NCBI GenBank assembly: GCA_031520405.1
Contig: GCA_031520405.1_4842.1
DNA: 64,000 nt
Strand: one strand, 5' to 3'
Source: a phage
The position numbers and the translations under genes were made by a program. Positions 13,302-17,765 of this stretch are shown piece by piece (the first letter of the stretch is position 1; every line of letters begins with the position of its first letter). The notes under the pieces were generated by a model. That model worked only from the letters and a program-made list of their open reading frames with translations, did not search any database and had not been told where the DNA came from.

Positions 13302-13329
13302 AAACCCCGCCGAAGCGGGGTTTTTCTTT
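13302..13329 (+). terminator. rho-independent terminator
   Basis: AAACCCCGC-CGAA-GCGGGGTTT hairpin plus T-run. Confidence 0.7.
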
Positions 13330-14498: not shown

Positions 14499-14945
14499 AT
14501 GTCTAAACAAAATTATATCTTTATTAGTCCAGGACGTTCCCAGTTTTTTCGTAGCGACATCGATACACCTATCGAAGGTTTTCGCATTTTCAAATGCTAT
14601 AAATTGGCCAGCGGTGACATTGATTATCAAAGTCACGACAATGACCGCCAAGACTTGGTTGATAACGGTTGGGAAGAAATAGATTCTCCTCAATATCTGA
14701 CCGTCAACCTTTATTATATGAAGGAAAGCGGTAAATATTATTCGACTGGGGAGTTGAAAATCCGAGTTTCAGAAGCCCAATCCAATCCAGCAAAAAGTTG
14801 GTATGACACGCAAGAGTTAGTGCGTGATCTCCTGAAGAAAGGCGAACTGCCTGGCTTGGTTAAAGGTTCCCGTTTTGATACCTTCATGTCCTGCGAACAA
14901 CACCCGTGCTATGTTCCGACTTTATTTAAAATCAGCAACATGTGA
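14499..14945 (+). CDS. hypothetical protein
   Basis: ORF with GAGAGA RBS-like sequence. Confidence 0.5.
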   Translation: MSKQNYIFISPGRSQFFRSDIDTPIEGFRIFKCYKLASGDIDYQSHDNDRQDLVDNGWEEIDSPQYLTVNLYYMKESGKYYSTGELKIRVSEAQSNPAKSWYDTQELVRDLLKKGELPGLVKGSRFDTFMSCEQHPCYVPTLFKISNM

Positions 14946-15963: not shown

Positions 15964-16032
15964 TTTGTTCTAAACCTTTGAACGGGGTATGTTAACCGCA
16001 TACCCTATCCCCTACAAATAGAGGACTTTACC

Positions 16033-16377
16033 ATGACAGTCGACACCAAACTGAATAATTCCGTGGAGATCCCCCACATCGTCAAATTCGAAAAGCCGAG
16101 CGAGCGTAAGCCACGCAAAACGCGCCGCCTGGTCACCAAGCTGGATCTTCTGAAACAGAAGTTCGGCGATCACAGTGTGTTCACTCGCATCCGTAACGCA
16201 TTAAAGGAAGGGCGAACCGAGTTGGAGCTATATCGTCCAAACGGTTCCACTCGTGCGTATCAGACCACCGACGGCTTGCTGGAACTGATCCGCCTCTCGG
16301 GAATGAGCATAGAACCTCGTTCATCAGGGACTCCCTTGTGCAGCCTGTATGTAATCGGCAATCTTGGGGCGCTGTGA
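16033..16377 (+). CDS. hypothetical protein
   Basis: ORF with GAGGA RBS. Confidence 0.5.
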   Translation: MTVDTKLNNSVEIPHIVKFEKPSERKPRKTRRLVTKLDLLKQKFGDHSVFTRIRNALKEGRTELELYRPNGSTRAYQTTDGLLELIRLSGMSIEPRSSGTPLCSLYVIGNLGAL

Positions 16378-16382
16378 GTTCT

Positions 16383-16805
16383 ATGAAGAAGTATATCGTT
16401 CTTATAACGGGTTCCCGTTCTATAACTGAGCGGGATAAAATATTTGCCAAATTAGATGAACTCTTAATCCCTCACGAGATAGAGACGTTTATTGAAGGTG
16501 AAGCAGTAGGTGTGGATCTGATATCCCGTGATTGGTGTGAAATCAATTATGTGCATATTACACCAATGCCGATTCCTCAAAATTACCATACGTTATATGG
16601 GAAAGGTGCGGGCAATCAACGTAACAAAGATATGCTGGACAAGGCTCTAACATTGGCGAAGCAAAAAGATCTTGAGGTCTTTGGAATTGCATTATGGGAT
16701 GGTTCGTCTACTGGGACGCAAGACATGATCAAGCGCATGAAGAAAGCGGGAATAAATGTCAATATCACTCTCATGGGCAAACCCAAAACCAAACGATTGT
16801 TATAA
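16383..16805 (+). CDS. SLOG-like (DprA/LOG Rossmann-like, DUF2493-type) protein
   Basis: IVLITGSRS strand, GEAVGVDLISRDW, WDGSSTGTQDMI: motif pattern typical of SLOG nucleotide-binding domains. Confidence 0.45.
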   Translation: MKKYIVLITGSRSITERDKIFAKLDELLIPHEIETFIEGEAVGVDLISRDWCEINYVHITPMPIPQNYHTLYGKGAGNQRNKDMLDKALTLAKQKDLEVFGIALWDGSSTGTQDMIKRMKKAGINVNITLMGKPKTKRLL

Positions 16806-16808
16806 ATA
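16801..16808 (+). promoter_or_regulatory. T4-type late promoter box TATAAATA
   Basis: only perfect TATAAATA in the window; 28 nt upstream of ATG 16836. Confidence 0.3.
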
Positions 16809-16835: not shown

Positions 16836-17006
16836 ATGTTACAAATACTGTTGGTGCTTTGTGTCGCATTTACCATGTACTTCATGGCGCGCATCTGTTT
16901 TATTACTTTAGATGACATGAAGGGTATCCCACGTGACCACAAATTCATCTTTCTGAAGAAGTTTGCCAAAAAGTTCTCAGAAAACTTTATTTATCATCTA
17001 CCATGA
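16836..17006 (+). CDS. small hydrophobic protein (56 aa)
   Basis: ATG with GAGGAG RBS; hydrophobic N-terminal segment. Confidence 0.35.
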   Translation: MLQILLVLCVAFTMYFMARICFITLDDMKGIPRDHKFIFLKKFAKKFSENFIYHLP

Positions 17007-17036
17007 TTAAATACCCCCAAAATTGGGGGTATTTTT

Positions 17037-17765
17037 ATGAACGCACAAATCTACGATGTCCTTTCCTCTGGTAACGCATTTAGCAATCCGCTTCCGTCCC
17101 TCTCCGGTCCCTCACAGGATTTAATCACCAGTGGTAGTACCAATATACCATTGATAACTGCCAACGCGACTCCGGAAATGCAGGTGGCTATGTCAGCAGG
17201 TGGATTAACACCAGATAAACTTACAGCAGCCACAAACATGTATAGCTCTGCCAACACGGGGATAACGACACTGAACACATATGGCGACCAGAGCATAAAT
17301 GAAGCGTATTCAAGAATTGGGACTTCCGTTTCATATAAATCAGGTTTGAAAAGTATATCACGGGAACCAAACAATTGTGACCTGATCAACAAAGCATTCG
17401 GTGTTATTCAGGATCTAGGCCGCCAATGGTTAAACGCTATGGAAGGCGCTCTCCAGACTGTGACTAACAAGATATCGGAATTGTATGACATGATTATGGA
17501 AGGTGCCTCAGAAGGGATGGCAAAACTACAGCAATTGGCTGCTGAAGTAACAGGACATATCAATGAGGCAATAACCGCCGTCAATGGAGTTATAAATGAT
17601 ATCACCGATGGGATAGCTGCAGAACTTGCTCATATTGAAAGTATGATCAAAGAATGTCTAAACTTCTCTTTTGCGAATGTTCTTGGAGAATGGGCCAAAG
17701 ATCTCTGTGCTGGAGGCGTTATTGATAAAATAGGGACTCCAGAATTAAAAGAGTCCCTGAAATAA
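17037..17765 (+). CDS. hypothetical protein (242 aa)
   Basis: ORF starting just after a G/C hairpin; no recognisable domain. Confidence 0.5.
   Translation: MNAQIYDVLSSGNAFSNPLPSLSGPSQDLITSGSTNIPLITANATPEMQVAMSAGGLTPDKLTAATNMYSSANTGITTLNTYGDQSINEAYSRIGTSVSYKSGLKSISREPNNCDLINKAFGVIQDLGRQWLNAMEGALQTVTNKISELYDMIMEGASEGMAKLQQLAAEVTGHINEAITAVNGVINDITDGIAAELAHIESMIKECLNFSFANVLGEWAKDLCAGGVIDKIGTPELKESLK

Follow-up and report, generated by a model that had tools for sequence, protein, structure and literature searches.

We analysed a 64,000-nucleotide (nt) stretch of phage DNA (contig GCA_031520405.1_4842.1 of NCBI GenBank assembly GCA_031520405.1), referred to below as the window, and report here on the gene at positions 16383-16805 of its + strand, whose product we call the SLOG protein. 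The SLOG protein is a stand-alone, single-domain member of the YAcAr family (PF10686), a small Rossmann-like alpha/beta protein, and the nearest characterised family by sequence is DprA. Its conserved residues suggest a DprA-like pocket, which would lack the residue that LOG enzymes and the receptor ThsA use on ribose.

The SLOG gene encodes a conserved YAcAr protein

The gene under study is as follows.

16383..16805, + strand: SLOG coding sequence, 140 amino acids (aa), PF10686 YAcAr, defined by translation of the open reading frame (ORF), Pfam, homologue alignment, and a structure model

The reading frame is uninterrupted over 140 residues and ends with a stop codon at 16803-16805. An original prediction, made from the DNA sequence, had described this ORF as a SLOG-type (DprA/LOG-type) protein and quoted three motifs from it, and all three are found exactly in the translation: IVLITGSRS at residues 5-13, GEAVGVDLISRDW at residues 38-51, and WDGSSTGTQDMI at residues 105-116. 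The longest ORF in the same frame starts at GTG 16338. However, all 28 homologues (28/28) align from ATG 16383 instead, so ATG 16383 is the right start.

The window comes from a Vi01-like Kuttervirus (Ackermannviridae). The region shares 99.7% identity with Escherichia phage vB_EcoM_JN03 and 94-99% with many Salmonella phages of Kuttervirus, and the SLOG protein is 99-100% identical in dozens of deposited genomes, including the Vi01 gene Vi01_144c. These nearly identical proteins are deposited as "hypothetical", "GTP-binding domain", "YspA", or "DUF2493 domain-containing protein", while the UniRef name for close relatives is "YspA cpYpsA-related SLOG domain-containing protein". Among Ackermannviridae relatives, the protein is conserved over its full length, down to 44% identity. 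The ORF is a real, conserved gene, with a signal far above chance. As a side observation, two records under other host names, OR844942.1 (Enterococcus phage Efm 3-10) and MN871475.1 (Pseudomonas phage Pa-sanjiao), match the Kuttervirus region at 96% and 90% identity, which is likely due to host mislabelling or contamination.

The only Pfam match of the SLOG protein is PF10686 YAcAr (YspA, cpYpsA-related SLOG family; formerly DUF2493; SLOG clan), with a score of 32.6 bits against the curated cut-off of 28.2 (E=7e-8, residues 5-56). The protein also matches PHROG_289 (E=2e-42). No match was obtained in NCBIfam, in PADLOC even at E<=10, or in a single-sequence search of the PDB. A profile built from 29 Ackermannviridae homologues matches 18,567 clusters (50% identity) at E<=1e-3, and only the 10 clusters of the Ackermannviridae clade are matched at E<=1e-30. 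To describe the wider family, we used a diverse alignment of 85 relatives with 26-100% identity. PF10686 is matched by all of them (85/85; best E=3e-21), and the DprA model PF02481 is also matched by 34, although these matches are weak (best E=5e-10). Other SLOG models are found in a few relatives (cpYpsA in four and LDcluster4 in three), and the LOG model PF03641 is matched neither by the SLOG protein itself nor by any of the 85 relatives at E<=0.01.

A profile search of the PDB ranks DprA chains first (E=0.005-0.012), with the GSR, GxAxGxD, and DGxSxGT motifs aligned. The AlphaFold2 model built on the 85-sequence alignment has a predicted local distance difference test (pLDDT) score of 94.2 and a predicted template modelling (pTM) score of 0.86; strands and helices alternate, and residues 131-140 alone are poorly defined. 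In a Foldseek search against viral models (BFVD), the matches are DUF2493/YspA proteins of many phages and giant viruses. The model shows a Rossmannoid three-layer alpha/beta fold with repeated strand-helix units, nearest to solved SLOG structures, and it has a polar, glycine-containing loop after strand 1 and conserved loop or helix residues after the later strands. The SLOG fold proposed in the original prediction is thus borne out by a Pfam score above the cut-off, by profile searches that lead to DprA, and by a confident model, and none of the profile searches points to an unrelated fold. The SLOG/YAcAr classification is correct and already known, as it is present in UniProt, in some GenBank records, and in a 2022 survey.

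No informative domain fusion was found among close relatives, and the longer forms are only tandem YAcAr duplications or extensions without a Pfam match. Tandem duplications within one polypeptide of ~260-270 aa are seen in the metagenomic relatives P0122, P0123, and P0237, and they are consistent with a domain that works as a dimer, like DprA and ThsA-SLOG.

Conserved residues point to a DprA-like pocket

Nine residues (G10, R12, G39, G43, D45, G77, R80, N81, and G111) are invariant in the 85 relatives, and a further nine (A41, G73, A76, M84, W105, D106, G107, S109, and T112) are nearly invariant. The invariant residues group in the long helix at residues 66-94 and in three loops, those that follow strands 1, 2, and 4, within the segments listed here.

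16407..16421, + strand: T-G-S-R-S loop after strand 1 (residues 9-13); G10 and R12 in 85/85 relatives; equivalent to the DprA G-S/T/A-R ssDNA-pocket motif (Arg52 switch, H. pylori DprA)
16497..16517, + strand: G-E-A-V-G-V-D after strand 2 (residues 39-45); G39, G43, and D45 invariant; aligns with DprA SGxAxGID
16608..16625, + strand: A-G-N-Q-R-N in helix 66-94 (residues 76-81); G77, R80, and N81 in 85/85 relatives; R-N equivalent to DprA Arg143-Asn144; an invariant Gly at the aromatic platform
16695..16730, + strand: W-D-G-S-S-T-G-T-Q-D-M-I after strand 4 (residues 105-116); G111 in 85/85 and T112 in 83/85 relatives; Met115 at the LOG/ThsA Glu position

The single-stranded DNA (ssDNA)-binding domain of DprA is marked by the G-S/T/A-R motif, in which Arg52 serves as a switch and the R52E substitution reduces the affinity by ~315-fold (Wang et al., 2014; PMC3950713). 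In a second motif, F/L/Y-x-x-R-N/D, Arg143 and Asn144 orient the inserted base, and R143E causes a loss of ~173-fold; the same study sets DprA apart from the LOG signature PGGxGTxxE (PMC3950713). The first DprA motif is complete in the SLOG protein (G10-S11-R12). The second is found in part: R80-N81 is invariant, but the position three residues before the Arg is occupied by the invariant Gly77, and an aromatic residue is common two residues before it.

The Glu position of the LOG motif (G-T-x-x-E, which corresponds to D-G-S-S-T-G-T-Q-D-M in the SLOG protein) is occupied by Met115, and among the relatives this position is Met in 70/85 and Glu in 0/85. In ThsA, E403 binds the ribose hydroxyls of 3' cyclic ADP-ribose (3'cADPR), and S290, R371, K388, G289, and G399 are on the diphosphate. 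Motif alignment places G399...E403 of ThsA on G111...M115 of the SLOG protein. As a by-product of this analysis, the residue pattern speaks for a pocket of the DprA type more than for one of the LOG/ThsA type.

A basic C-terminal tail is conserved in Ackermannviridae

The last residues of the SLOG protein form a distinct element.

16776..16802, + strand: G-K-P-K-T-K-R-L-L peptide (residues 132-140); amino acids invariant in five Ackermannviridae lineages; predicted disordered; charge ~+3.5

All Ackermannviridae homologues end with L-[ML]-G-K-P-K-[TS]-K-R-L-[LI], even at 44% overall identity. The tail is predicted to be disordered in the AlphaFold2 model and adds a charge of ~+3.5 to an otherwise neutral core with an isoelectric point (pI) of 6.8. 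It is not present in the rest of PF10686, where profile matches stop near residue 128, and it is previously unreported. The tail codons of seven phages show synonymous changes at almost every position (GGC/GGT; AAA/AAG; CCC/CCT/CCA/CCG; CGA/CGT/CGC; TTG/CTG/CTT; TTA/ATA/CTG/TTG). With such synonymous variation under a constant peptide, selection acts at the protein level, on the tail peptide and not on a DNA element. The tail may serve as a short docking motif or as an arm that binds nucleic acid, and an AT-hook-like G-K-P core and a MuA-type ClpX signal are possible leads.

Two other explanations for the tail sequence were considered and rejected. The first is that an overlapping DNA signal keeps the tail. 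The exact T4-type late-promoter consensus TATAAATA lies at 16801-16808 (+) and overlaps the SLOG stop; it is the sole match in the 64-kb window, where 1.8 are expected. The codons vary synonymously, and TATAAATA at the SLOG stop is at chance level and is not conserved outside Kuttervirus. The presence of one match amid many late genes implies that the T4 late-promoter consensus is probably not used by this phage family. The second is a motif that the SLOG tail (KPKTKRLL) would have in common with KPRKTRRLV in the N-terminal arm of the upstream ORF; this is a coincidence, as the stretch varies and is missing in the homologues of Klebsiella and Serratia phages.

YAcAr genes of other phages often lie near replication-type genes

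A replication-type gene (polymerase, clamp-type subunit, DnaB with primase, Dda, or DnaC) is found at or near the YAcAr gene in five of six distant annotated phages. The YAcAr gene overlaps the end of the DNA polymerase gene in KpV52, lies between the "polymerase beta subunit" and DNA polymerase genes beside 7-deazaguanine genes in Vibrio BA3, follows DnaB and primase and precedes a RecB-type exonuclease in Bacillus pW4, precedes a Dda-like helicase in Vibrio D481, and lies ~0.9 kb downstream of a DnaC-type gene in Pseudomonas IME307. In Seurat, it is located among unlabelled small genes. Furthermore, HelB of ICP1 is a Dda-like superfamily 1B (SF1B) helicase with a C-terminal DUF2493 domain. 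Ten metagenomic relatives show mixed contexts, including DUF4326 with a primase-helicase, nicotinate phosphoribosyltransferase (NAPRTase), RNA ligase, Thg1, radical SAM, HD, or nothing recognisable. We also observed that in the BA3 locus (MN175679.1 16971-23312, Queuovirinae) the DUF2493 gene directly follows a 7-deazaguanine DNA-modification cluster containing GTP cyclohydrolase I and a DpdA-type ribosyltransferase.

Searching IMG/VR with a degenerate DNA pattern for A-F-W-D-G-x-S-x-G-T gave 120 loci, of which 115 encode true family members, and these were reduced to 80 representatives at 60% identity. Of the 326 neighbouring ORFs (crude calls, >=100 aa, within 2 kb), 300 were scanned; counts were taken for the 25 commonest families of each batch, and the figures for singletons are minima. 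The recurrent neighbour families are SF2 helicase (4), Metallophos (6), DnaB_C (3), 5'-3' exonuclease (2-4), UvsY (2), and HNH, together with anaerobic ribonucleotide reductase (2), dCTP deaminase (2), and ParB_N (2). As a control, 150 ORFs from the same loci, at a distance of 4 kb or more, were scanned, and DNA polymerase A, ThyX, single-stranded DNA-binding protein (SSB), and topoisomerase are found there too, amid structural and lysis genes.

Possible functions of the SLOG protein

We tentatively favour a reading in which the SLOG protein binds ssDNA or a nucleotide in the manner of DprA, without catalysis, is docked by its tail, and is accessory to replication, recombination, or nucleotide metabolism; we regard this as the best single account, at somewhat less than an even chance. 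G10-S11-R12, D45, R80-N81, and G111-T112 would form a pocket for the base and phosphate of ssDNA or of a free nucleotide, and these residues would act as their counterparts (Arg52, Arg143, and Asn144) do in H. pylori DprA. The protein would be a DprA-like binder and not a LOG-type enzyme. In Ackermannviridae, the basic tail GKPKTKRLL would tether the domain to a partner protein or nucleic acid, and the protein would have an accessory part in the gene module where most relatives lie, that of phage DNA replication, recombination, or nucleotide metabolism.

Several observations weigh against this reading. The aromatic platform of the second DprA motif (F/L/Y three residues before the Arg) is an invariant Gly in the YAcAr relatives, and the pocket equivalences come from motif alignment. 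The SLOG protein itself does not match PF02481 and does not have the SAM and winged-helix domains of DprA. In Ackermannviridae, the gene is adjoined by uncharacterised small ORFs and virion genes, not by replication genes, and the context signal in the wider family is that of a DNA/nucleotide-metabolism module in general, in which no single partner recurs. Some relatives adjoin NAD/ADP-ribose genes, including DUF4326 in a metagenomic relative, and NAD synthase, NAPRTase, NADAR, and Tpt1/KptA are found as single neighbours, together at ~4 of the 80 dereplicated viral loci among the matches listed. No experimental study of any phage YAcAr protein was found in the literature.

A role in counter-defence is possible, although we consider it unlikely. 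The SLOG protein would then be a sponge or degrader of an immune nucleotide derived from NAD+ or ADP-ribose (2'/3'cADPR or the His-ADPR of Thoeris) and would work through a ThsA-like SLOG pocket. Viral SLOG domains have been found in 7%, 19%, and 31% of small, medium, and jumbo phages, respectively, mostly of a YpsA-like clade, and are fused to helix-turn-helix (HTH), HNH, 3'-5' exonuclease, SF1 helicase, or guanylate kinase domains (Iyer, Burroughs, Anantharaman, and Aravind, 2022; PMC9503650). The same survey predicts in silico that these domains sense or degrade cADPR-type immune signals and states that they are experimentally uncharacterised (PMC9503650); a 2021 review of jumbo phages names YAcAr domains explicitly. 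This published prediction and the few relatives that adjoin NAD/ADP-ribose genes count against the DprA-like binder, and together with a fold-level similarity to ThsA-SLOG as high as that to DprA they speak for counter-defence.

On the other side, the position of E403, the Glu that ThsA uses on the ribose diol, is Met in the SLOG protein, with no Glu in any of the 85 relatives, and the SLOG protein shows no sequence-level match to the YpsA/ThsA families. The NAD/ADP-ribose neighbours are confined to the few loci given above, and the contexts are mostly of the replication type. Over 119 kb (27,980-147,000) of the 158-kb genome of phage moki, a close relative, the annotation includes no Macro, NADAR, Nudix, or NAD-salvage gene, a weak negative given that many moki genes are unannotated, and PADLOC returned no match for the SLOG protein. 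None of the recent papers examined on anti-Thoeris proteins and sponges involves a SLOG or DUF2493 protein. The original prediction had noted that members of this fold family are linked to the sensing or processing of nucleotide derivatives in phage-host conflict. For the SLOG protein, such a link is one option with a published prediction behind it, but the pocket does not favour it, with Glu replaced by Met and the DprA-type G-S-R and R-N residues invariant.

Less probable than such a role in general is a decoy, namely a miniature SLOG receptor that would soak up or destroy a host immune nucleotide (cADPR isomers or other), with GKPKTKRLL targeting a host factor. If this were true, the family would be among the most widespread anti-signalling families, with about one-fifth of medium-sized phages carrying such domains.

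We regard as improbable a LOG-type N-glycosidase or transglycosylase that acts on a nucleotide or nucleoside, for nucleotide-pool reshaping or the DNA base hypermodification of this phage group. The protein does not have the PGGxGTxxE signature, Met115 occupies the site of the catalytic Glu, where none of the 85 relatives has Glu, and PF03641 finds neither the protein nor, at E<=0.01, its relatives; D45 and the D-G motif are shared with non-catalytic DprA. Mimicry of DprA or ShosA is a speculative idea and very improbable: the protein would act against host RecA-linked processes or the Shosta toxin-antitoxin system by engaging ssDNA/RecA in place of ShosA, the DprA-like antitoxin of the host, but PADLOC gives no match at E<=10, and the protein has only the Rossmann core, 140 aa compared to 308 aa in ShosA.

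The YAcAr family comprises more than 18,000 clusters at 50% identity, is common in phages, and is worth attention. DprA-like DNA handling and interception of NAD signals are separable by simple binding assays, and the conserved Ackermannviridae tail provides an experimental handle for finding partners. Nothing here is surprising to a specialist, and the interest is modest.

The "GTP-binding" label traces to a contaminated protein family

In many GenBank/RefSeq records and in PHROG_289, the protein is described as a GTP-binding protein, and the only support for this reading is the inherited annotation "GTP-binding domain" or "putative GTP-binding protein". The Walker A (GxxxxGK[ST]), NKxD, and DxxG motifs were searched for in the SLOG protein and none was found, and the fold is SLOG, not that of a P-loop GTPase, so the label has no sequence or fold support. 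At the level of sequence and fold, the GTP-binding reading can be regarded as effectively refuted.

"GTP-binding domain" in RefSeq phage records is the name of PHROG_289. This family has 500 columns, of which the SLOG protein aligns on 20-146 and the DUF7217 virion protein (17037-17765 +) on 259-500. PHROG_289 merges the unrelated YAcAr SLOG and DUF7217 proteins because of a frameshift-fused ORF of 475 aa in Salmonella phage 38 (KR296692.1, 59288-60715), which is also the top BFVD match. Compared to the window, KR296692.1 has single-base deletions in homopolymer runs at 16742, 16968, 17018-17019, and 17032, by which three genes are fused, and the same record has split genes for DNA polymerase, terminase, sheath, capsid, and UvsW helicase. 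The 475-aa fusion is an artefact of sequencing. Between genera, the counterparts of the three fused genes stand in different reading frames, so there is no programmed read-through. We considered the SLOG-DUF7217 fusion as a Rosetta stone for function and rejected it in view of the homopolymer deletions in KR296692.1 and the strong hairpin between the genes. A by-product of the analysis is therefore that the common "GTP-binding domain" label is without support and the PHROG that carries it is contaminated.

Gene neighbourhood in Ackermannviridae

The features next to the SLOG gene are as follows.

16033..16377, + strand: upstream 114-aa ORF (phrog_4663); no Pfam match; directly 5' of SLOG in every genus examined
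16839..17006, + strand: downstream 55-aa ORF with a hydrophobic N-terminus (phrog_4845); last gene of the unit; syntenic in all genera
17009..17034, + strand: terminator-like hairpin with a U-run; free energy (dG) -19.8 kcal/mol, z -4.9; directly before the DUF7217 start at 17037

The genes of annotated relatives run from the prohead genes and the major capsid protein through about eight small uncharacterised ORFs to a 90-115-aa ORF, SLOG, the 55-aa hydrophobic ORF, and DUF7217, followed by a reverse-strand lipoprotein, tail-completion protein, UvsY, exonuclease, UvsW-type helicase, clamp, and clamp loader. This order is kept in Kuttervirus, Agtrevirus, Limestonevirus, a Klebsiella phage, and Miltonvirus. 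DUF7217 is labelled "structural protein" and, as the depositors note, occurs in Limestone virions. With a terminator behind the capsid gene at 13302-13323 and the hairpin at 17009-17034 ahead of DUF7217, the SLOG gene is the last but one in a unit of small genes of its own. Depositors annotated a terminator in the same stretch as 17009-17034 in phages Mutine, Maynard, and Mooltan.

The SLOG ATG lies 5 nt after the stop of ORF 16033-16377, and this spacing suggests translational coupling of the two genes, whose start and stop codons overlap in the Klebsiella and Serratia phages. The product of ORF 16033-16377 combines a small alpha/beta core with an N-terminal arm that is basic (pI 10) and disordered, and its model, of moderate quality (pLDDT 71), gave no meaningful fold match. 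This protein may be a partner of the SLOG protein.

The original prediction had placed the SLOG gene in an early region, and this placement is not supported. The gene follows the major capsid gene and precedes virion/tail genes, and these late genes, which flank its small-ORF block, are on the same strand, whereas the T4-type early block (rIIA/rIIB, topoisomerase, DNA polymerase, and many small genes) is on the opposite strand and far away. A sigma-70 consensus scan gave 22 promoter-like sites compared to 14.9 +/- 4.3 in shuffled sequences, none of which informs the timing of expression, and a literature search for transcriptome or promoter studies of Ackermannviridae found none.

Three further observations were made in these genomes. 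A 9-bp stem-loop (GGGGUAUGU...GCAUACCCU) without a U-run is present at 15984-16006 (+), in the 69-nt gap before ORF 16033 (z -2.9 for the 76-nt region), and could be a processing or regulatory hairpin. The 148-aa ORF at 14499-14945 (+; phrog_4181) is named "nucleotide-binding protein" in moki and "phage associated protein" in Vi01; it has no Pfam match, and the "nucleotide-binding" label may have been inherited without a visible basis. In addition, phage moki carries a QueC-like gene.

Comparison with known systems

Among the known systems, P-loop GTP-binding proteins are defined by Walker A and NKxD motifs and the P-loop fold, and the SLOG protein has none of these. LOG enzymes (PF03641), the cytokinin-riboside 5'-monophosphate phosphoribohydrolases, have the PGGxGTxxE signature and a catalytic Glu, both of which are missing in the SLOG protein. 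ThsA, the 3'cADPR receptor of type I Thoeris, combines the Glu E403 with an effector domain (SIR2 or transmembrane), whereas the SLOG protein is stand-alone and has Met at this position.

DprA/Smf (PF02481), the bacterial ssDNA-binding RecA loader, is a multidomain protein of ~220-370 aa that has SAM and winged-helix domains in addition to the Rossmann fold (the winged helix not in all cases). In contrast, the SLOG protein has the core only, as one domain of 140 aa that is about half the length, and falls outside the PF02481 match and architecture. The closest system is the YAcAr family (PF10686) itself, with which the SLOG protein agrees in score, in all conserved loops, in its stand-alone size (~115-150 aa), and in the wide spread among phages. 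The rest of the family is without the GKPKTKRLL tail, whereas the Ackermannviridae clade (~10 clusters at 50% identity), to which the SLOG protein belongs, has it.

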